Both the position numbers and the translations under genes were made by a program. A model generated the notes under the pieces. That model saw only the letters and a list, made by a program, of their open reading frames with translations, had not been told where the DNA came from and searched no databases. DNA of 64,000 bases, taken from an uncultured Gammaproteobacteria bacterium (GTDB lineage Bacteria > Pseudomonadota > Gammaproteobacteria > Ga0077536). Position 1 is the stretch's first letter; every line of letters begins with the position of its first letter. The DNA lies in the NCBI GenBank assembly GCA_903866355.1, contig CAIPNE010000714.1, positions 64,825-128,824 of the forward strand, given 5' to 3'. Below are positions 3,001-59,926 of the stretch, in pieces.

Positions 3001-5106
3001 GCCGGGTGAGTCGTATGCCCATCCGGCGACGATGCGCAACGGCTCATTCTGAGTCAGCGGTGGCGACAGCGGTGCTTCAAAGTATTTCGATGTCGTACCG
3101 TTGGTGAACTCCAGCACGATCTTTCCGTAACCCAGGTTGCCCACGTCGTAGTACAGGCGCGGCCAGAATTGGCCGGATTCGGGGTTTTCAGGAATGATTT
3201 CCAGCAGTACCGGGTTGTCTCCTGGCGGGCTGGTGGCGGTGAAGTCGGGGGTCCACTCCACACCGATCCAGCAGTTCTTTTTGACCAGCGGGCCAACCCT
3301 GAACGGAGCGACAAACTCCGATTCCTCCGACCCCGTCGCTACATCCCACAGACCCCTGCCTGCTTGCCAGCGGGTGTGGGCTTCGACGGTTGGGGGAACA
3401 GAAATCGGTGACGGGTTGAGCGTGACCCCGTCCGGATCATCGTTGGTGTAGTAGATATTGAGGGCATTGCCGGTATAGATAGGGTCGATGTACAGAGTGT
3501 CGATGAGTTGCGGTGACCCATCCGCAGTTCGTACGTCAAGATAGAGCGAAACCACAGCGTCAGGAGTCGGCTGAGCCGACGAGCGCCAGAATGTGGCAGG
3601 GTTGTTGTCGATAGCTTTCGGGGCGTCCCAGTCCTTGATGTACGTCTCTACTACGTTGCCCAAAGCATCTTCAGTGATGGTGGTGGCGCGGATGCCGGAA
3701 GGCCGGTCGTACATATTGCGGCGCATCAGGACGTTGCGCAAACCGACGCAGTAGGGGCGGGTTCCCATGGCCGGGTCGGGCAGTCGAGTCAGTCGGAACT
3801 GAACCGCCTTGGCAAGGGTGGGACTGGTGTAGGCGGTATAGGGGTGCCAGTTCTCCGTGAATGACGCAGGCAGCGTCAGACTGACTGGGTTGCGGTTTTC
3901 ATCCAGCATGGCCCGCCAGTTGTCCTGCCGGTCGTGGTACCATACGTCGATTCTGGCCGGAACCTTGACCGCCTGGAATGACACATCATTGATCGGCATG
4001 GGGAGCTTGAAATTGACCTGGAGGACTTCGGTCTTCTGTTCAAACGTGCGAGCGGTCTTGTATTTTTGACCGACATCCCGCAGGTACTGAAGAGCGATCT
4101 GGTAGCTGGTCATCCCATTTCGTGGGTCGCCAGGAGGTGGTTCGGTGGGGTAGGTCATGTGACCACCACCTACTGTTCCAATGATGTCAAAAATCTCAGT
4201 AATGCCCTCAAAAACTTCAGTAATGGTGTTCCAGTTAAGAGCGTTTAGGTTGGCACCGATGAACGCAGCGAGGTCATTCCCGGTGAATCTCCCGATGAGT
4301 AGTGACCACAAAGTTGTCCAGTCCACACCTAGCAAAGAGTTGCCGGTTGCCCCGATAAGTTCTTTATCGTTGGCGAACTCCCACCACAGATCCGGAGTAT
4401 TTTTTAGGCGCTGTTCGGCAGAAAAGTTTCCGTGACTCAGCCCGTTCGACCCATCCAGGTCATCCCATGCAACCGGCTCAATTGCCCCAGGAAAAAGTTT
4501 TCCGGCCTGTCGGCAAGGATTACCAAAAGATATGCCAGCAAGGAGGTCTGCTTTTCTGTGCTGTAGCCGACCACCTTGAATCTCTTCCAACACCTTGGAC
4601 ATAACGGCAGCGCCCTGGCTATACCCTCCCAAAGCGAATGCGCCTGGGGTGTCGTTAATCATAGAGATTGTTTTCTCGACGCCCTCCCTCATTGATTGAC
4701 CAAACGGGAACATTGCATTGGCAAAGCTAACGGTCTTTACCGTCCACAAGTCAGCGTCAACCATTCGGTGGAAGGGGTCATTGGCGGGTGCCCAGGCCCA
4801 TTCGTAGAGCTTTCCATCAAGATCGCTGAAGGTCACACTCATTGGGGCGTAGATGGGCAACACCCCGAATCCAAAAAAATCAAACCAGTTGTGGGTTCCG
4901 GTGGAGTAGAAAAACGTCGGCTTCGGGACATCGCCTTGAGAGGCGGGTCGTGGCTGAGAGAACCACTCGCGGCCCTTGGAGGCGTCCACTATGGCATTGG
5001 GGGAATTGGGAGATTCGGCCTGCTGGGACAGCAGCTTGCGGATAGCGTTGTAGATGCCCAGCGGGATGTGGAACTCGTAGTACATGCTGTCGATAGGGTT
5101 AGTCAT
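1..5106 (-). CDS. Giant distal tail/baseplate-associated structural protein. It is 3'-truncated by the window edge, with more than 1,700 codons open. Its N-terminal region carries a cutinase/lysin-B-like serine esterase motif.
   Basis: Own reverse-complement translation from the ATG at 5104-5106 (ATGA overlap with the stop of the upstream gene) shows no stop codon down to position 1. The track does not list it, presumably because it is incomplete. Residues about 150-200 read ...TPGAFALGGYSQGAAVMSKVLEE... followed by ...LAGISFGNPCRQAG..., which matches the G-Y-S-Q-G nucleophile elbow and FGDP-like motif of cutinase-family esterases. It is the last gene of the baseplate/fibre block. Confidence 0.6.
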   Translation of the reverse strand, partial: MTNPIDSMYYEFHIPLGIYNAIRKLLSQQAESPNSPNAIVDASKGREWFSQPRPASQGDVPKPTFFYSTGTHNWFDFFGFGVLPIYAPMSVTFSDLDGKLYEWAWAPANDPFHRMVDADLWTVKTVSFANAMFPFGQSMREGVEKTISMINDTPGAFALGGYSQGAAVMSKVLEEIQGGRLQHRKADLLAGISFGNPCRQAGKLFPGAIEPVAWDDLDGSNGLSHGNFSAEQRLKNTPDLWWEFANDKELIGATGNSLLGVDWTTLWSLLIGRFTGNDLAAFIGANLNALNWNTITEVFEGITEIFDIIGTVGGGHMTYPTEPPPGDPRNGMTSYQIALQYLRDVGQKYKTARTFEQKTEVLQVNFKLPMPINDVSFQAVKVPARIDVWYHDRQDNWRAMLDENRNPVSLTLPASFTENWHPYTAYTSPTLAKAVQFRLTRLPDPAMGTRPYCVGLRNVLMRRNMYDRPSGIRATTITEDALGNVVETYIKDWDAPKAIDNNPATFWRSSAQPTPDAVVSLYLDVRTADGSPQLIDTLYIDPIYTGNALNIYYTNDDPDGVTLNPSPISVPPTVEAHTRWQAGRGLWDVATGSEESEFVAPFRVGPLVKKNCWIGVEWTPDFTATSPPGDNPVLLEIIPENPESGQFWPRLYYDVGNLGYGKIVLEFTNGTTSKYFEAPLSPPLTQNEPLRIVAGWAYDSPGSAVFISVMSKGSQIGYSYTPNTLALPNYITLDGEVSFSKFRGLLTAHIIKLSSWLNDHESFMVNPIAYVDPDPITPDSQGEVTSSSLDNSVFSCDWTAQRFPVGGSSPSMHVSRRWTPIWRDYTVQRGKIFFPRQISTKWIKMEFSKLTAEPYPVYDTGIQTTYEVFPISVYADVTTTTSTTTNVPGTDMQATVLPSPKNVHTPGAIETVVGAVKGAVTNIGESINGLLGNVGNLVAGISSVNWLDPRAVNAAIEASTVSTVQPVAAAIGSASETGSIPNTVATALGQSTGATADPSTSIALRNEATSSLIYRRRDIQPQILAGQTVNKIIGTMPIQGLGATVSTPIATAISTAFAPTVSYPGAAPVTPAMGKDYWLFPGGLLKMPAAIMESIFSGIQWGLFGTNSVVQGSSPMSGPVSTSLTTTTSTTQRVRFNTTETHVYRTLTATRTAAIGYFAGIREVAAYATTYIDYEDPLSFDFKVYDPNQWRFTNVSQAITGAVTAAGSPYTDADLDLADLDSWVTVGDWVWDGTQDSYSGNRVGSASIVADGTEVSLTAKTPFKVDPLDEVVIGASVKFVGAESATFPAAFGTSYKGNYNNGADYYPGEVVFYGGFYWERIGEPNPGYTPGTAYWGEPMSPTAQIVMDVISYLDGEVVGVETLDPASANTAAPGYTPPTALDGNASRVSIDNPTGRTNGVTFTHLLGTYAVPSDGVDALAIRFRITAGVTAGQFWIAEVKAEPRNGGRGFLYNRFITFSKFNKVICDFRDSGLRRSDRMWAQNDPLNKNVDKNALSWYTSPTTMPPGMWGDQFAEWADENVNWGNARATVAIWIDPERTYKGNRALHFRRAAGSGSAGVRVIQQTNYFPGAQVRICCTFYKPIQNSNFITLRLRRVSDGVYIHEEEIQNPTVGKWFTYQSSFFEVPDTLDQVYIVEIDLTGTFEDDLYVSDLYTEIAHIRYFMRLGGVSNPNAVNLDVTELAHSPTGDAIVTCTEPTNEVAL

Positions 5107-6455
5107 CAGGTACTCACAAAGGTGGCAGGATCGACCCAATCACCGGCCAGAGTGTTGGGTCGCTGGGCAGTAAGACTGGTCGATACCGTGGACTCCTGGG
5201 CAGGAGCAGAATAGGCCACAGCGTATTCGGCCCAGTAGGTGGTCTTAGGATTGCTTGACACCTTAATAGGCAGCTTGTAGTGCAGATCGTCGGCAATGCC
5301 GCCTTGGGCTTGGACATTTATCTTTTTGTCTGCGATGTAAGCCGACTGACTTGCCCACGGGAACTGATACGGGCTACGGTCGGGATTCAGAGCAGGGACC
5401 GCTAGTGGTGTGATGCCGTATTTGCCGCCGGGGTAATTGTCGGGAGCATCGGCCTTTTCGTAATTAATCCACTCAGTGTATGCCCCGGTGGACCGAAAGA
5501 TTTCAAAGTTCGGCTCAGATTTGATTGAGCCGTCAGGCTGTAGCGTCCCGTAGGTAACGGAGTCGATGGGTGACCTTTCGCCGCCGCCAATCAGGTAGTA
5601 GTACGAATACTCGCTGGTGACGTTGAATGCAGCGTAGGGCGCTAATTGAGCGTTATCGGTGGCATCGAAGAGCCACAGTTCGGATGGATTGAGGTTGAGG
5701 TTCAAGTCGGTGGAGGTCATCGTTTTGATGACCGGGCTGGCAACCACGCTCTTTTGGACTTCGTAGTATGTCGAAGTGGCGGCAATAGCTGAAATCTTCG
5801 CGGGCGCGAGCATCGACAAGCCACGAAGGTTGATGGAAATAATCGTGTCAACAGGAGTAATCCTGTCCAGCATGTCGCGCAGCAGCCGGAACTCTTCGGG
5901 CGACAACACATCCTTATGGGGGCGAACAGTCAGTTCGTTTCGGGCAGAGTACTGAGCGCGACCAAGGTTCTCCCCCAGGCCGAAGGCGTCGATGTATCGC
6001 CACGTCTCCAGAAGCGTGCAGTCGGTCCCGGTGGCAGCTTGCGAACACATCCGGACGCCTTGCGGAGTCCCACCTAGCGAGCAGGCAGCGAAGAAGTTTT
6101 TGATCCTGGCCCGATACCACGCATCCTTGACCCTGACTTCATTCCACTGATCCGACGTAAGCATGTCAGTCATTGGGCTGTACGAGTAGGACTCTGCCGG
6201 GGAGCGACCCAGGAAATTGATCTTAGAGAAGATGTAGTCCAGGTCATTGAAGTAAATCGTCTCCAGCGCGTTGGTGAGCCGCGCTAGGAAGGACTGGTTC
6301 AGTAGGCTCCCGGCCCCGGTGGTGCCACAGATGGAGTCAACGAACTTATAGAGCAGGGTGTCGGGAGTAGCCGTGTAGATCTGCTCATCGAAGTGAGCTA
6401 GCCGAAGCTCCGTAGAGATTGGCGGCAATACGGGGAAGGGGGCGACTGAAACCAT
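5106..6455 (-). CDS. Baseplate wedge / fibre-attachment protein, possibly gpI-like by its position after the J-like gene
   Basis: 449-aa ORF sharing the ATGA junction with the giant gene. Its position follows the Baseplate_J-like gene. No diagnostic motif was recognised. Confidence 0.4.
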   Translation of the reverse strand: MVSVAPFPVLPPISTELRLAHFDEQIYTATPDTLLYKFVDSICGTTGAGSLLNQSFLARLTNALETIYFNDLDYIFSKINFLGRSPAESYSYSPMTDMLTSDQWNEVRVKDAWYRARIKNFFAACSLGGTPQGVRMCSQAATGTDCTLLETWRYIDAFGLGENLGRAQYSARNELTVRPHKDVLSPEEFRLLRDMLDRITPVDTIISINLRGLSMLAPAKISAIAATSTYYEVQKSVVASPVIKTMTSTDLNLNLNPSELWLFDATDNAQLAPYAAFNVTSEYSYYYLIGGGERSPIDSVTYGTLQPDGSIKSEPNFEIFRSTGAYTEWINYEKADAPDNYPGGKYGITPLAVPALNPDRSPYQFPWASQSAYIADKKINVQAQGGIADDLHYKLPIKVSSNPKTTYWAEYAVAYSAPAQESTVSTSLTAQRPNTLAGDWVDPATFVST

Positions 6456-39764: not shown

Positions 39765-40445
39765 TTACCTTATTGAGGCGTGATTGACGGCGGCAGATAA
39801 CTGGGAAGTTTTTACGCCGGGGGTCGGACTGAACGATAAGGGGATGCCAATAGCTCCACCCCACTGAGTATTGTTAGTTGTGGTGACCGTACTGGAAGTT
39901 ACGCCGTCCGAAACGGCATAGAAGCCGCCAGCCGAATTATTTCCGCTGGTGTTCGTCCAGAAAGCTAACGTGGCTCCGGTGTAGCTATTAAGCGGTGAGG
40001 CGTAGGTTTCTCCGACGCTGAACACCACCATGCCGTTAGCTGGCCCCTGCGCCGTGACCGTGTGGGGGGAGCCTTGCTGTAAAGCCGTGACTGGGGTGCC
40101 GATTTTTCCAGCCCCCTTGAATGACATGGAGTTGGCTGCCCAGGTGTAAGACTTGCCATTCGGGTTTAGGTTGACCGTCTTGGTTCCTGAGCCGCCAATT
40201 TCCAAGTAGAACGAGGCGCACCGAAAAGTTGATGCCAAAAACTTCATGGCGACACCATCGAAGGTTAGCACTACATCATTCGGCCCCATTGCGTCATTGC
40301 CGTTCGTCAGAGAGACATTTAGGCCGGGGCAAATGGTGACGATAACGAGGTTGTGGTCGGCGGCGACAGTGTGATTCCATGACCCCGCCACGTTCGCGGA
40401 GGACTGATAAAATCCGGTCCCGGCAGAGCCGAAAGTAACGGGCAT
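39765..40445 (-). CDS. Hypothetical structural protein
   Basis: 226-aa ORF, Gly/Thr/Ser/Asn-rich. Confidence 0.45.
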   Translation of the reverse strand: MPVTFGSAGTGFYQSSANVAGSWNHTVAADHNLVIVTICPGLNVSLTNGNDAMGPNDVVLTFDGVAMKFLASTFRCASFYLEIGGSGTKTVNLNPNGKSYTWAANSMSFKGAGKIGTPVTALQQGSPHTVTAQGPANGMVVFSVGETYASPLNSYTGATLAFWTNTSGNNSAGGFYAVSDGVTSSTVTTTNNTQWGGAIGIPLSFSPTPGVKTSQLSAAVNHASIR

Positions 40446-40482: not shown

Positions 40483-40866
40483 CTACGCCGCCAGTGGAGC
40501 CAGTGACAGACCGCAGGTGTTGAGCGTCAGGGTGTCACCGTTGGCGACCGTCTTGCTCACCGAAAGCTGCGCCGACCAGAGGAAGGAGCCGCCGGTCGAA
40601 GCCGACCAGACCGAAATGTAGGCTACGGTTTCGGAGGTCGTCATGTTCCATGCGGTCGGAGTAGCCGACAGAGCGATAGCACCCGACGAGGCGGCAGCGA
40701 AGGTCGCCTGCTGACGCACCGTTACGGCGCTCTGATTGCTCGTTCCGCTGGCACCTGGGTCACCAGTGTGCAAGCCGATGTAGGTCGCAGAGTTAGAGAA
40801 CGAAGTGCCACGAATGCCATTCAGCATTGCATTGGCGAGGTTGGTGGTGGAGAGGCCCACAGTCAT
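40483..40866 (-). CDS. Small fibre/minor-tail-like protein with an ...YIGLHTGDPGASGTSN... motif
   Basis: 127 aa. GAAAGAAAGG precedes the ATG. From memory, the LHTGDPG block resembles N-termini of actinophage minor tail proteins, but this is unverified. Confidence 0.45.
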   Translation of the reverse strand: MTVGLSTTNLANAMLNGIRGTSFSNSATYIGLHTGDPGASGTSNQSAVTVRQQATFAAASSGAIALSATPTAWNMTTSETVAYISVWSASTGGSFLWSAQLSVSKTVANGDTLTLNTCGLSLAPLAA

Positions 40867-41017
40867 CGGTTATACCTTTCTTTCGGTGGAGGCGGTAGCC
40901 TCCGTATCGGGGTTGGCCGGGTCCGTGGCCTCATCCATCCAGAGATTTTGCGGCGCTCTGGTCACCGATGCCGATGCTTCCGTCACGATTTCACCCAAGA
41001 TGTTCATGTCATTTCTT

Positions 41018-41203
41018 TCAGGCTTGGAGGGCAGTGGATAACAGGAACCAGGCCCCGGCGTGGCTTGACCACCGGAAGCCCAGGAAGGCGGTCTTGTGTG
41101 GCTCCAGCGTGATGGAGGGGTGAGCGCCCAGGCAGGGGATCACGTCGGACGGTGAGAACACCAGAACCCGATCAGGCCCTGCTTTGACCTCAAACACTTC
41201 CAT
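41018..41203 (-). CDS. Small hypothetical protein (low confidence)
   Basis: The track ORF spans 41018..41419 with a GTG start. Only the 3' third, from the ATG at 41201-41203 (MEVFEVKAGPDRV...), shows the local GC3 bias. No RBS was found. Confidence 0.25.
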   Translation of the reverse strand: MEVFEVKAGPDRVLVFSPSDVIPCLGAHPSITLEPHKTAFLGFRWSSHAGAWFLLSTALQA

Positions 41204-41478
41204 CTGATGCTCGTCCGGATCTTCGGGCAAGCTCAAGTGCAGATCGGACTGGGCGACGATGTGATTGCTGTATGAAGGATAGGCAGTACGCGCCCAGCCC
41301 AAAGTAAGCTGGTCGTGTTCACCGACTGGTGTCGGCCCTAAGTCCTTGCGTGTCACCAAGACCTCCCTCACCACTTCTGAAGGGTGAGAGGGCTGGTTAC
41401 AGGGCAGAAAGGCCCCCACCCTGCGAACAGGATGAGGGCCGGTCCTACCGAAGGATCGTGTGCGGCGAGTGCCCCTCG

Positions 41479-41685
41479 TTAGGACGTTTCGATGATGGGG
41501 ATATGGCTGGCGGTCTTTTCGTCAATGTCGATGACCACCGGGTTGCTGATCTTCAGGTCAGATAGACCGTTGATGAACTCCTGCATGTCGTGGATGCAGC
41601 TAGTTTGCACAATGATCTTCTGTATCTCACCGTCGTCATTAGACAGCGTGACGAGATAAGACCTCCCCACAGCTTCTGCGCACAT
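41479..41685 (-). CDS. Small Ile-rich hypothetical protein in an AT-richer island (moron-like)
   Basis: 68 aa (MCAEAVGRSYLVTLSNDDGEIQKIIVQTSCIHDMQEFINGL...). No SD precedes the ATG. TAGCCT lies 6 nt upstream of it, consistent with a leaderless TANNNT promoter. Palindromes lie immediately upstream. Confidence 0.45.
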   Translation of the reverse strand: MCAEAVGRSYLVTLSNDDGEIQKIIVQTSCIHDMQEFINGLSDLKISNPVVIDIDEKTASHIPIIETS

Positions 41686-41715
41686 AGGGTTAGGCTAGCA
41701 CTTCTAACTGTTGAA

Positions 41716-41748
41716 CCCTATAGGGCATTAAATCCCTAGACCGTAGGG
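41716..41748. promoter_or_regulatory. Palindromic element CCCTATAGGG (perfect 10-bp palindrome) plus CCCTAgaccgTAGGG, flanking the stop of the 232-aa gene and upstream of the 68-aa gene
   Basis: Seen in the sequence: 41716-41725 and 41734-41748, with an AT-rich spacer between them. Confidence 0.5.
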
Positions 41749-42431
41749 CCACTATCCCCAGTCTCGACCGGGGTGACCACGGCGTCCGGAGGAAGCTCTC
41801 CAGCCACGGCCAGAGTCGCACCTTCAGGTACGGCTACGGGCGATACGTCGGGAACCTCCACCACCGTAGTGGCCGGATGCAAGTCGCCTGCGTGTACCGG
41901 ATCGGCTGTCGGATCAACCGGGACCGGGGTGACCGCCTCAGCCGGTGTTTCGACCGTCTCAGCGCCCGCAGGAACCTCTGCCGGGACAGACGGTACCTCT
42001 GCGGTGATGCTGGCGTCAATCAGCCCTCCATCGGCCACCTGGCCTGCCGGGGTGCTGGCCTCGACGGCGACAGCCGGAACCTCAACGGGAGCCACCGGCT
42101 CCAGCGCGTCAGCCTGCGCCTTGACGGCATCAGCAGCCACGACGAGTTCATCGACAGCCTGGATGAGTTCCGGATCGGTTGCCGTACCGGCAGCGGTCAG
42201 GCTAGCCACCTGCTGCTGAAGGCTGGTCACCTGGCCGGTCAGTGAGGTCAGGTTGCTCTTCAGGTTCCCGACGTTGATGTTGTTGTCCGCGACAGCCTCG
42301 TTGAGCTTGGCGACAGCGGCTTCGATCTGGTCAGCGAGTGACATGATTTCTCCGATTTTATTGAGGATGAAGAAGGTCACAAACAGCGTGAACCCCTGAA
42401 AAAGCAAGGCGGCTGCGGTGAACCAGATCAT
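41736..42431 (-). CDS. Membrane-anchored coiled-coil protein with a Pro/Val/Ala-rich C-terminal half
   Basis: An N-terminal hydrophobic helix (IWFTAAALLFQGFTLFVTFFIL) is followed by heptad-like segments and then PVAPVEVPAVAVEAS... AAGGAG lies 6 nt before the second ATG. Confidence 0.5.
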   Translation of the reverse strand: MIWFTAAALLFQGFTLFVTFFILNKIGEIMSLADQIEAAVAKLNEAVADNNINVGNLKSNLTSLTGQVTSLQQQVASLTAAGTATDPELIQAVDELVVAADAVKAQADALEPVAPVEVPAVAVEASTPAGQVADGGLIDASITAEVPSVPAEVPAGAETVETPAEAVTPVPVDPTADPVHAGDLHPATTVVEVPDVSPVAVPEGATLAVAGELPPDAVVTPVETGDSGPTV

Positions 42432-42447
42432 CACGGACTCCTTGGGA

Positions 42448-42487: not shown

Positions 42488-42552
42488 TACTCTTTCTCCC
42501 ATCATTGAGTGAGCTTTACAGGTTGAGCGGGAAAAGTGGTACGCACATACAG

Positions 42553-42589
42553 AAATCCCCCTCCCAGATGTTTGCTAGGAGGGGGATTT
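42553..42589. terminator. Intrinsic-terminator-like hairpin about 40 nt downstream of the major capsid gene: a 12-bp perfect stem AAATCCCCCTCC / GGAGGGGGATTT with a 13-nt loop
   Basis: Seen in the sequence. The stem is flanked by T/A-rich runs on both strands and could act bidirectionally. Confidence 0.5.
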
Positions 42590-42629
42590 CTTGCCTGTAC
42601 GAGTTTGCTGTACAGCTATCCTTGCAGGT

Positions 42630-43631
42630 CTACGCCTTGCGGAGGATAACTATGCCTCTCGGGTTTAGGATAGCTAGGCCAACGAGTTCGTCCATAACCC
42701 AGCCTTTGTGGAACTGTTCCACGTTATTGTTCTCTTCCACGTCGAGCGAGTACATGACGGGGAACACGCCCAAGAAGGACGGCTCCGGAGTCAGGTAGGT
42801 CGTACCCGGCGGGATGATGACGGACTTGCCGATCTGGAACTCACCGAACTGCACGATGCGCTCGCCAGCAACGACAGAGTCTTTGAACGCCCACCCTGTC
42901 GTATTGATGTCCCACCTGTAAAAATCCCGATATTCTGCGGGATTGCAGAGCAGGCGAGACGAATCCAGCAAACGCTGATCGGTGAAGGTGACCGCCGTGT
43001 AGAGGTCATCCGGCGACAGGTAGTTGCCTGCAACCTGGATTTCATTCGGCAGCGAGCCGGTACCGGGGACGGACGAGGAATCGACCAGACGATACTGTGC
43101 TGCGGCGACCTCCAGCAAAGTAATCAGGCGGCTATCTTCCTGCCGCATGATCGCCTGTTTCGTCATATCCTGGGCGTACTCAACCACGTTTGACCTCAGG
43201 TAATAGAGGTCTTCCTTCTTGATCTTCGGGAAGGCGGCGATGCGGAACAAGCTAACTGGCACACGTTTGCCCTCGAAGGGTGTGATTTTGACCTCACCCT
43301 CGTCGCCGTGGAGTAGGTAAGCCTGTCCTAAGTCGTCCAGAACGTCGTACTCAATGGGCACGCCGGGGGTCAGCGTGTCCTCCAGCAGGACGTTACGCAG
43401 GATGCCCTGGTAACGAAGCTGAAGCTGGATGGGGCCGATCATGGACTGGCCCAAGCGGACCATTCCGTTCTGGCGATCACCCAGGATGTTGGCGAGCTTG
43501 GACTGCTTCTCGCGGGCACTGAGCTTGCGACCACCCAGACGTGTCATCACGTTCTGGATATCAGCCACATACTCATCAGAGTGACGGGCAAGCCGACCGA
43601 AGCCGGAACCCGTAGCTACTGGGAGACTCAT
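42630..43631 (-). CDS. Major capsid protein (HK97-fold type, inferred)
   Basis: 333 aa. GGGAGGA precedes the ATG. A strong hairpin follows the gene. It lies downstream of the portal-protease block. A spine-helix-like segment FPKIKKEDLYYLRSNVVEYAQDMTKQAIMRQEDSRLITLL is present. Confidence 0.5.
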   Translation of the reverse strand: MSLPVATGSGFGRLARHSDEYVADIQNVMTRLGGRKLSAREKQSKLANILGDRQNGMVRLGQSMIGPIQLQLRYQGILRNVLLEDTLTPGVPIEYDVLDDLGQAYLLHGDEGEVKITPFEGKRVPVSLFRIAAFPKIKKEDLYYLRSNVVEYAQDMTKQAIMRQEDSRLITLLEVAAAQYRLVDSSSVPGTGSLPNEIQVAGNYLSPDDLYTAVTFTDQRLLDSSRLLCNPAEYRDFYRWDINTTGWAFKDSVVAGERIVQFGEFQIGKSVIIPPGTTYLTPEPSFLGVFPVMYSLDVEENNNVEQFHKGWVMDELVGLAILNPRGIVILRKA

Positions 43632-52623: not shown

Positions 52624-52698
52624 GGGTGCTACCTCCTACCTTTTCTGGCAGGGCGTGGCAGCGGTTACAGGTTTAGATCCTGGTGAGAAGCCCTTGCG

Positions 52699-59852: not shown

Positions 59853-59926
59853 GTCTGCCCTGCTTCCAGTCGTCGTCGGGAGAGCTTCCTCGTAACTTCT
59901 GTCGGCGGGATCAGCCGGTTACAGGA

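Follow-up and report, generated by a model that had tools for sequence, protein, structure and literature searches.

A conserved 68-codon gene with a predicted leaderless start in the structural block of an uncultivated actinophage

The window analysed here, a contiguous stretch of 64 kb (64,000 nucleotides), belongs to an uncultivated actinophage, a myovirus of about 150 kb with relatives in mycobacteriophage clusters C and AA and among Gordonia phages such as Skog. The locus of interest comprises a gene for a 68-aa protein, its two neighbours and a series of palindromic, hairpin and promoter-like elements, listed below with their coordinates in the window.

41018-41356, minus strand: downstream 112-aa gene, starting with GTG at 41356
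41374-41403, minus strand: bipartite motif CCTGTAAC-N16-CAGAAG, immediately before the Shine-Dalgarno (SD) sequence of the next gene (GGGAGG, 41362-41367)
41405-41440, minus strand: hairpin H2, candidate intrinsic terminator (13-bp GC-rich stem at 41411-41440, followed by UUUCUG)
41442-41485, minus strand: hairpin H1, overlapping the TAA stop codon of the 68-aa gene, loop partly conserved
41479-41685, minus strand: 68-aa coding sequence (7.5 kDa, pI 4.3)
41684-41721, minus strand: 8-bp inverted repeat ATAGGGTT ... AACCCTAT around a 22-nt loop, which forms in the minimum-energy fold
41692-41700, minus strand: TGcTAGCCT, extended -10-like element with the hexamer TAGCCT at -12 to -7 from the A of the ATG
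41716-41725, no strand: perfect 10-bp palindrome CCCTATAGGG, centred at about -35.5 from the ATG
41734-41748, no strand: interrupted palindrome CCCTA-N5-TAGGG (CCCTAGACCGTAGGG), centred at about -56 from the ATG
41736-42434, minus strand: upstream 232-aa gene, whose product combines a hydrophobic N-terminal helix with a coiled-coil region and a tail rich in Pro and Ala
42493-42592, minus strand: strong hairpin at 42546-42592 (z -5.5) after the major capsid gene, then the variant motif CCTGTAAA-N16-GAGAAA

The 68-aa open reading frame (ORF), which appears in the ORF list and is matched by homologues, is a real coding gene under strong purifying selection (dN/dS 0.07-0.17, eight homologues compared). 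As the original prediction had stated, it is rich in isoleucine (11 of 68 residues) and poorer in GC than its neighbours, its total GC of 0.502 lying at the bottom of the 72 minus-strand ORFs (mean 0.588). Its supposed foreign composition was not confirmed: GC at third codon positions (GC3) is 0.710, where the ORF set has a median of 0.695, and the deficit is confined to codon positions 1 (0.478) and 2 (0.319), which points to amino-acid content rather than foreign DNA. An in-frame TAG lies 12 nt upstream of the ATG, which in L014, L007 and L020 is the sole possible in-frame start ahead of the conserved SYLVT block. A GTG at codon 6 was considered as an alternative start and ruled out; as these three closest lineages offer no other in-frame start codon, the ATG stands as the start of the gene.

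By sequence, profile and fold comparison, the 68-aa protein is a member of a small family confined to phages, to which also belong Phrappuccino gp59 (47% identity, tblastn E 4e-9), Myrna gp107 (hhalign probability 96.7%, E 3e-10) and a homologue in Skog. The similarity extends over the whole domain, and these small, stand-alone proteins, all annotated as hypothetical, share with it the signature YLVTL...C-x-H-x-MQEF...PVV-DI. Foldseek matched the proteins of Skog, Myrna and Phabba with probability 1.00, and PHROG 2997, an entry listed as 'unknown function', was matched weakly (E 5.6e-4). Within 1.8 billion proteins, the family accounts for 39 clusters at 50% identity and consists almost entirely of stand-alone proteins 56-107 aa long. 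In L003-L010, L013-L017 and L020-L024, the family gene lies between a homologue of the 232-aa gene and the 112-aa gene; overall, these two neighbours flank it in some ten distinct relatives from metagenomes as well as in nearly identical copies of the phage itself. The genes directly upstream of it in L004, L005, L007, L008, L009 and L020 match the 232-aa protein with blastp E values of 1e-47 to 1e-93. None of the relatives examined lacks the gene. In clusters C and AA and in Gordonia phages such as Skog, the homologues are likewise found in the structural region and, as annotated, are preceded in Phrappuccino, Myrna and Skog by an intergenic gap of 94-173 nt. Judging from synteny and composition, the gene is thus a conserved resident of the structural block of this phage group and not a recent insertion.

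Two AlphaFold models (pLDDT 70 and subsequently 79) give the 68-aa protein a beta-beta-alpha-beta fold. Foldseek searches against PDB and BFVD returned no significant match outside its own family, the best non-family matches having E values of 0.07 (BFVD) and 1.2 (PDB 4njc), and a sequence-profile search of PDB found nothing below E 0.49. The BFVD match is a Dickeya phage protein annotated as 'RNA polymerase inhibitor' (probability 0.92, non-significant), and a match to the fold of YkzG (TM 0.50-0.66) is likewise non-significant. In size, net negative charge and small beta-sheet-plus-helix topology, the protein resembles phi29 p56, T7 Gp2 and YkzG, but the fold matches remain below significance (E >= 0.07, TM about 0.4-0.6) and sequence similarity is absent. 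Neither fold nor sequence places it among T7 Gp2-like or epsilon-like RNA-polymerase binders. Our guess is that it most likely has no enzymatic role and serves in binding or assembly.

The start region bears out the described combination of a missing SD and a hexamer, as TAGCCT ends exactly 6 nt ahead of the ATG, is preceded by TGc, and none of the SD cores GGAG, GAGG, AGGA, GGGA or AAGG occurs at -17 to -4. Most genes that follow intergenic gaps in the window have a GGAGG-type SD, with a spacing of roughly 6-9 nt in the clear cases. In a survey of start sites, a TANNNT motif 5-9 nt upstream of the first-listed start was found in one other case, the 712-aa ORF, the ATG of which directly abuts a TAA stop codon. 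Five diverged lineages lack an SD and carry a TANNNT hexamer 6-7 nt before the conserved ATG (equivalents of the hexamer in the window are TAGTCT in L014, TAGCCT in L007, TAACCT in L013/L020 and TACTCT in L009). Synonymous sites among these lineages are near saturation (dS 0.8-2.8) and the sequence further upstream is unrelated; the distance between hexamer and ATG is kept amid diverging sequence. L009 has a strong terminator hairpin (z -4.4) whose end lies some 30 nt ahead of the ATG, so that only a promoter with TACTCT as its -10 element fits in between. More distant relatives carry SD leaders (AAGGGG/GGAGG) at the homologous gene instead. TAGCCT matches TATAAT at only three of six positions, and a scan for sigma-70 consensus promoters found nothing at the start region.

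Among primary transcription start sites in mycobacteria, 73% are preceded by a TANNNT centred 7-12 bp upstream, a -35 element is not conserved, and a TGN extension marks the strongest promoters, while only about one fifth of the TANNNT motifs of Mycobacterium tuberculosis are associated with a start site (PMC3898074). The motif definition used here follows that study, and these mycobacterial promoter rules are extrapolated to a phage whose host may follow others. The 68-aa gene has the layout of a leaderless sigma-A-type transcript, with TAGCCT at -12 to -7 of A41685, TGc in front of it, no SD and the ATG as first codon. It shares with leaderless actinobacterial mRNAs (PMC3898074) a TANNNT at -12 to -7 of the start codon and an ATG at +1, with neither a 5' UTR nor an SD, all of which are predicted in the present case. 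The suggestion of a leaderless-type start thus gains in silico support from the layout kept across five diverged lineages, and the gene probably has its own promoter at the start codon. All five SD-less lineages have a conserved RGGTG at a distance of 13-17 nt from the ATG, which could represent an SD with long spacing rather than part of an extended -10 element. Among phage genes, lambda cI transcribed from P_RM is leaderless. In contrast to cI, the 68-aa gene, with its predicted leaderless start, lies in a structural block, not in a repressor or immunity locus.

Upstream of the hexamer, the expected perfect 10-bp palindrome (CCCTATAGGG) and second palindromic element (CCCTAGACCGTAGGG) were both located, separated by the spacer CATTAAAT; the latter element overlaps the TAG stop codon (41736-41738) of the 232-aa gene. 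These palindromes are non-random and lineage-specific. Five CCCTA/TAGGG half-sites fall within 64 nt, a number (at least five) reached in none of 300 dinucleotide shuffles, and perfect 10-bp palindromes are otherwise avoided genome-wide (20 observed versus 67 +/- 9 in shuffles). No further copy of CCCTATAGGG with up to one mismatch occurs in the 64-kb window, exact-pattern scans of viral and genome collections for the palindrome region found nothing, and the palindromes are absent from the relatives covering that region. The 97% identical contig L017 ends inside it, and contigs with an identical protein represent the same phage at >=99.8% identity. The exact protein sequence occurs in 95 indexed blocks of the public assembly collection. 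An RNA structure or a terminator of the upstream gene was rejected as an explanation, since folding is no better than in shuffles (z -0.5 to -1.1). CCCTATAGGG contains the T7 core CTATAGGG, but a T7-type promoter was also rejected: the motif is single-copy, its only exact match being the palindrome itself without any excess at one mismatch, and none of six large ORFs screened contains a single-subunit RNA polymerase domain. The ATAGGGTT/AACCCTAT inverted repeat encloses the -10-like hexamer, with the last bases of its 3' arm falling on the AT of the ATG; the RNA stability of this region is ordinary (z -1.1 and -0.5). This repeat and the hairpin after the stop codon had been overlooked in the original prediction.

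Downstream of the gene, H1 and H2 form a tandem hairpin with a folding energy of -45.5 kcal/mol (z -4.6), and none of 200 shuffles is as stable. The tandem is conserved with some compensatory changes: equivalents have z -4.8 in L014 and -5.2 in L009, and the pairing of H1 is kept with different bases (GTCCTAACGAGGG / CCTTCGGTAGGAC in the window versus GTCTTAGGTGGGG / CTCCCCTAAGAC in L009). A strict T-run terminator scan did not flag H2 on the minus strand, its tail containing only four T, and an Rfam search of positions 40800-42000 yielded no match at E <= 1. The signs of a promoter and terminator belonging to the gene itself are mixed, with a conserved -10-like hexamer and a hairpin followed by a U-rich tail (z -4.6) on one side and negative consensus scans on the other. 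Several relatives, including Myrna at gp107, carry a terminator hairpin upstream of the gene, whereas in the window lineage the candidate terminator is located downstream.

The bipartite motif CCTGTAAC-N16-CAGAAG recurs in the window in two near-perfect copies (52671 and 59925) and a variant (42522). Motifs of this type, which are not of the sigma-70 type, precede at least four genes and often follow a hairpin. They are absent from the examined stretches of Phrappuccino, Myrna and Skog, which still carry the 68-aa family gene. The 112-aa gene behind the motif truly starts at GTG 41356 and not at 41419, the start of a 133-aa ORF; its SD and start align across relatives, and in near-identical contigs its gene calls begin 122 nt after the 68-aa gene, equivalent to 41356. 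As no homologue of its product was found among isolated phages, it gives no functional lead. The layout of a hairpin and an CCTGTAAA-type motif after the major capsid gene is shared with L009, and we propose that it marks the start of a unit containing the 232-aa and 68-aa genes.

Taken together, we lean towards reading the locus as a small, vertically inherited gene that belongs to the virion-structural block and whose product would be made mainly by leaderless translation of an mRNA started from TGcTAGCCT. In a two-gene unit, the 68-aa gene would follow the 232-aa membrane/coiled-coil gene as the second and 3'-terminal cistron, the unit being bounded by the hairpin and CCTGTAAA-type motif upstream and the tandem hairpin/terminator downstream. 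Host sigma-A RNA polymerase would start an mRNA at the A of the ATG, from which most of the 68-aa protein may be translated, so that its amount or timing could be uncoupled from that of the flanking structural genes. Since no terminator lies in the 50-nt gap between the two genes, where structure is ordinary in the window lineage (z -0.5), co-transcription is expected as well, but such a read-through transcript should be translated poorly, as no SD precedes its ATG, which can become part of a weak stem. The CCCTA/TAGGG dyads, if active at all, might serve as a DNA-level site for a lineage-specific regulator. Alternatively, and in our view possible but rather doubtful, the gene is an ordinary late cistron, the last of a transcript starting upstream of the 232-aa gene, with SD-independent or long-spaced-SD initiation and a hexamer without promoter function. 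The unterminated gap agrees with this, as do intergenic distances of only 18-31 nt in L007, L013/L020 and L014, the RGGTG conserved in all five SD-less lineages, the negative consensus promoter scan and the M. tuberculosis precedent that most TANNNT have no mapped start site (PMC3898074). However, the 13-17 nt spacing of RGGTG is well outside that of the clear SDs in the window, the hexamer keeps its distance from the ATG in diverging surroundings, and the terminator of L009 sits directly upstream of the hexamer. The obvious SDs of the leader-bearing relatives furthermore show that its initiation normally depends on a dedicated signal.

Two further explanations assign the gene a specialised role. 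According to the original prediction, it is a moron, a horizontally acquired, independently transcribed accessory gene for superinfection exclusion, anti-defence or host conversion among structural genes. Morons, exemplified in lambdoid phages by HK97 gene 15 and lambda bor and lom, occur sporadically between genes that are adjacent in relatives, deviate in composition and are often expressed from the prophage. Those of lambdoid phages were reportedly treated by Juhala et al. in 2000 and Hendrix et al. in 2000. Like them, the 68-aa gene is a short ORF with its own promoter and hairpin terminator, both predicted, inside a late structural region, and the lowest total GC of all 72 ORFs would fit too, as would a small acidic product with a weak, non-significant fold likeness to phi29 p56 and the annotated polymerase inhibitor. 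Unlike them, it is always present, native in GC3 and without sign of lysogeny. A search for presence/absence polymorphism, advised in the original prediction, revealed no absence, and uniform conservation in relatives, which that prediction had itself named as evidence against the idea, is what was found, reaching as far as clusters C and AA and the Gordonia phages. Where relatives do show genuine insertions and deletions, these fall not here but between the capsid gene and the homologue of the 232-aa gene. A pattern-limited search across 185,579 bacterial and archaeal species, each represented by one genome, found no homologue, and hence no sign of a prophage, while PADLOC matched neither the 68-aa nor the 112-aa protein, so that nothing speaks for an exclusion or anti-defence role. 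With constant flanks, native GC3 and purifying selection, the moron interpretation is very improbable. The second explanation, to which we give hardly any credence, holds that the product is a T7 Gp2- or epsilon (YkzG)-like RNA-polymerase binder made from a host-type promoter, which would help to redirect transcription to the CCTGTAAC-N16-CAGAAG sites. Its acidity, the weak matches to two small RNA-polymerase-associated proteins (the Dickeya phage protein and YkzG) and the repeated non-sigma-70 motif before at least four genes would accord with this. Against it, no fold E-value reaches significance, phi29 p56 does just as well, the motif is missing from the family-bearing stretches of the three isolated phages, and the gene lies in the late structural block rather than among early genes. 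An elaborate form, in which such a factor arises from the leaderless promoter, takes part in switching transcription to these sites and is timed by the dyads as an operator, seems just as far-fetched.

Overall, this appears to be an ordinary small gene with a tidy predicted transcription layout. In itself it carries little weight, and it illustrates that a moron-like layout and low GC mislead unless GC3 and synteny are checked. The comparison of Phrappuccino gp59 and distant metagenomic relatives, which have SD leaders, with the window lineage, which has an SD-less ATG and a -10 hexamer, provides a clean, testable example of one gene that is predicted to switch between SD-led and leaderless starts among related actinophages, while in the same comparison the terminator shifts from upstream to downstream of the gene. 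Furthermore, with CCTGTAAC-N16-CAGAAG a widespread uncultivated phage offers a candidate for a phage-specific promoter or 5' element, which could aid the annotation of transcription units in this phage group and is perhaps more useful than the 68-aa gene.

All sequence features described in the original prediction were found where it had placed them. The 68-aa ORF (41685 to 41479, minus strand) is rich in isoleucine (11 residues) and has 15 close homologues, and an exhaustive profile search recovered 39 family clusters (50% identity), whose members are almost always stand-alone proteins 56-107 aa long. Compared pairwise with eight homologues, the ORF has a dN/dS of 0.07-0.17 and nearly saturated synonymous sites; it is a genuine gene. 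An in-frame TAG lies 12 nt upstream of the ATG, and in three related lineages no other in-frame start codon precedes the conserved SYLVT block, which indicates that this ATG is the correct start. The encoded protein (7.5 kDa, pI 4.3) was modeled by AlphaFold from 66 sequences (pLDDT 79, pTM 0.61) with strands at residues 8-15 and 21-28, a helix, a third strand (50-55) and a second helix. No Pfam family scored above threshold, the PDB yielded no match by sequence, and PHROG 2997 ('unknown function') matched weakly. Significant structural matches comprise only proteins of the actinophages Skog, Myrna and Phabba; neighbours outside the family (phi29 p56, a phage 'RNA polymerase inhibitor' and YkzG) were non-significant. 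The most economical guess is that the protein serves as a small binding or assembly factor.

All real genes of the window lie on the minus strand (GC ~59%), and it contains no tRNA genes. The capsid gene (42630-43631) shares 75-77% DNA identity with mycobacteriophage myoviruses of clusters C and AA (such as Myrna, I3 and Phrappuccino), and the neighbours encode a Phage_cement_3 protein, a Gp80-like fibre/head protein, laminin-G fibre proteins and a tail sheath protein. The same phage (at least 99.8% identity) is present on ~150-kb metagenomic contigs, and the 68-aa protein is found unchanged in 95 indexed blocks of a public assembly collection. One metagenomic contig, L023, otherwise 99.8% identical, carries a 347-aa gene (4211-5254) instead of the 226-aa gene after the Gp80-like gene (39765-40445; PHROG 'minor tail protein'), and the next aligned stretch drops to 87% identity. 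This swap is the real presence/absence polymorphism of the region and looks like the exchange of a tail-fibre or host-range cassette.

The original prediction interpreted the 68-aa gene as a moron, an acquired and independently promoted accessory gene wedged between structural genes. Its total GC content (0.502) is indeed the lowest of 72 ORFs, but the composition is not foreign, as GC3 is 0.710 compared with a median of 0.695; the deficit is confined to codon positions 1 and 2 and thus reflects a protein rich in Ile, Asp, Asn and Lys. The presence/absence polymorphism to be expected of a moron was not seen: the gene sits between the same flanking genes in every relative, with a homologue of the 232-aa gene directly upstream (blastp E 1e-47 to 1e-93) and the 112-aa gene directly downstream wherever contigs reach that far. 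Where relatives do show true insertions or deletions, these are extra genes (49-465 aa) that separate the capsid gene from the 232-aa homologue and do not adjoin the 68-aa gene. Conservation is also deep, with Phrappuccino gp59 47% identical and Myrna gp107 matching the family profile at 96.7% probability. A Myrna-type minor capsid protein has been reported as common to cluster C1, Phrappuccino and the Gordonia phages Pupper, Skog and SCentae, among others (PMC7150772); family members were found in Phrappuccino, Pupper, Skog, SCentae and the cluster C2 phages Myrna and Phabba. A pattern-limited search of 185,579 bacterial and archaeal species, each represented by one genome, revealed no prophage copy, and PADLOC defence models gave no match. 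Composition, synteny, depth of conservation and the lack of a prophage or defence signal together contradict a moron origin. The 68-aa gene is an uncharacterised small conserved phage gene, probably with a leaderless start.

The flanking genes have features of their own. The 232-aa product (41736-42434, minus strand) has a hydrophobic N-terminal helix (IWFTAAALLFQGFTLFVTFFIL) and also contains a coiled-coil segment, and its long tail, rich in Pro, Ala, Val and Glu, has a conserved end (GELPPDAVVTPVETGD); a membrane-anchored protein is unusual within a capsid-fibre block. The 112-aa gene (41018-41356, minus strand) was overcalled as a 133-aa ORF (41018-41419), its true start being the GTG at 41356 according to relatives and Shine-Dalgarno (SD) position, and no homologue of its product turned up among 50,697 records of isolated phages.

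As originally described, TAGCCT ends 6 nt ahead of the ATG and an SD is missing. TGc directly precedes the hexamer, and no SD core occurs between -17 and -4, whereas most window genes that follow an intergenic gap carry GGAGG-type SDs. Relatives split into two start types. The more distant ones (L003-L006, L008, L011 and Phrappuccino) show a clear SD 5-8 nt ahead of the start; in L003, L005 and L008 the upstream intergenic region is strongly structured and terminator-like (folding z against shuffles -3.6 to -6.9), and the intergenic gap ahead of Myrna gp107 is just as structured (z -5.2). Five closer lineages are SD-less and keep a TANNNT hexamer 6-7 nt before the conserved ATG.

Hexamer elements of the SD-less lineages
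Window and L017: TGcTAGCCT, 6 nt to ATG
L014-L016: TGcTAGTCT, 6 nt to ATG
L007: TAGCCT, 7 nt to ATG
L013 and L020-L022: TAACCT, 7 nt to ATG
L009 and L010: TGaTACTCT, 7 nt to ATG

The window and L014 are separated by a dS of 0.83, yet differ at just two positions from the extended -10 TG to the ATG; farther upstream their sequences are unrelated. The ATG of L009 is preceded, at a distance of ~30 nt, by the end of a strong terminator hairpin (z -4.4), so any promoter there must use that hexamer. Primary start sites of mycobacteria have a TANNNT centred 7-12 bp upstream in 73% of cases, the -35 region is not conserved and a TGN extension marks the strongest promoters, although only about one-fifth of TANNNT motifs in M. 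tuberculosis are associated with a start site (PMC3898074). The 68-aa gene start has the same geometry, but this rule may not be that of the host. Of the predicted leaderless promoter, the SD-less ATG and its hexamer are borne out and are kept in five lineages. A scan for E. coli-type consensus promoters was negative. Alternatively, the RGGTG that is conserved immediately ahead of the hexamer could serve as a long-spaced SD. A leaderless-type start is plausible and comparatively conserved.

The two palindromes originally described (41716-41725 and 41734-41748, with an AT-rich 8-mer between them) are real and clustered: five CCCTA/TAGGG half-sites fall within 64 nt, a number reached in 0 of 300 dinucleotide shuffles. 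They are absent from L014-L016, L007, L013/L020 and L009, are not repeated elsewhere in the 64-kb window, and their RNA is not unusually stable. Counted from a start at the ATG, the dyads centre near -35.5 and -56; they are possibly a DNA-level regulator site. Across the window, perfect 10-bp palindromes are strongly depleted (20 observed against 67 +/- 9 in dinucleotide shuffles) and CCCTA/TAGGG is under-represented (51 against ~85); both would fit an avoidance of restriction sites. The -10 hexamer lies inside an 8-bp inverted repeat (ATAGGGTT/AACCCTAT) whose end falls on the ATG. In L014 (protein 85% identical), a perfect 10-bp inverted repeat of different sequence (TCTGCGCACA/TGTGCGCAGA; 555-594, z -2.6) at the same position brackets the hexamer and takes in the start codon. 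These repeats in two lineages give only a hint of start-codon occlusion on read-through transcripts.

A tandem hairpin comes directly after the stop codon of the gene.

Hairpins after the 68-aa gene
41442-41485, minus strand: H1, in tandem with H2
41411-41440, minus strand: H2, followed by UUUCUG

The pair has a folding energy of -45.5 kcal/mol (z -4.6), and equivalents in L014 (z -4.8) and L009 (z -5.2) show compensatory changes at some base pairs. The H1 loop (GCACYCGCCGCACA) is conserved while its stem covaries. The ~75-nt element (window 41357-41478 against L003 6196-6244) is itself present or absent by lineage: it occurs in the window, L014-L017, L007 (with different hairpins) and L009, and is lacking in L003-L006, L008 and L013/L020, where the CCTGTA motif directly follows the stop codon. 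L003-type relatives have a terminator upstream of the family gene and none downstream, so the place of the gene relative to the terminator has shifted between lineages, and the start has shifted with it from SD-led to SD-less.

H1/H2 is followed by a bipartite motif, CCTGTAAC-N16-CAGAAG, and then by the SD and GTG of the 112-aa gene. The window holds three near-perfect copies (0-1 mismatch in 14 positions, exact 16-nt spacing), all intergenic, on the coding strand and upstream of the 797-aa, 1485-aa and 112-aa genes.

Copies of the bipartite motif
41374-41403, minus strand: near-perfect copy
52642-52671, minus strand: near-perfect copy
59896-59925, minus strand: near-perfect copy
42493-42522, minus strand: variant CCTGTAAA-N16-GAGAAA, between the strong post-capsid hairpin (z -5.5) and the 232-aa gene

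In the form CCTGTAAC-N16-CAGAA(G/A), with fixed spacing, the motif lies just upstream of the SD of the 797-, 1485-, 232- and 112-aa genes, and at two of these four sites (41403 and 42522) it comes shortly after a strong hairpin. Relatives share this layout, and the motif also occurs in L003 (2532, 5245 and 6200), L009 (5083), L008 (5750) and L007 (1939); it was not found in the stretches of Phrappuccino, Myrna and Skog examined. From the capsid gene onward, the proposed order is a hairpin, the motif and the 232-aa gene, then the -10 hexamer with the ATG and the 68-aa gene, and finally H1/H2, the motif and the 112-aa gene. The repeated motif may be a phage-specific promoter or 5' element and represents a more promising lead than the 68-aa gene.
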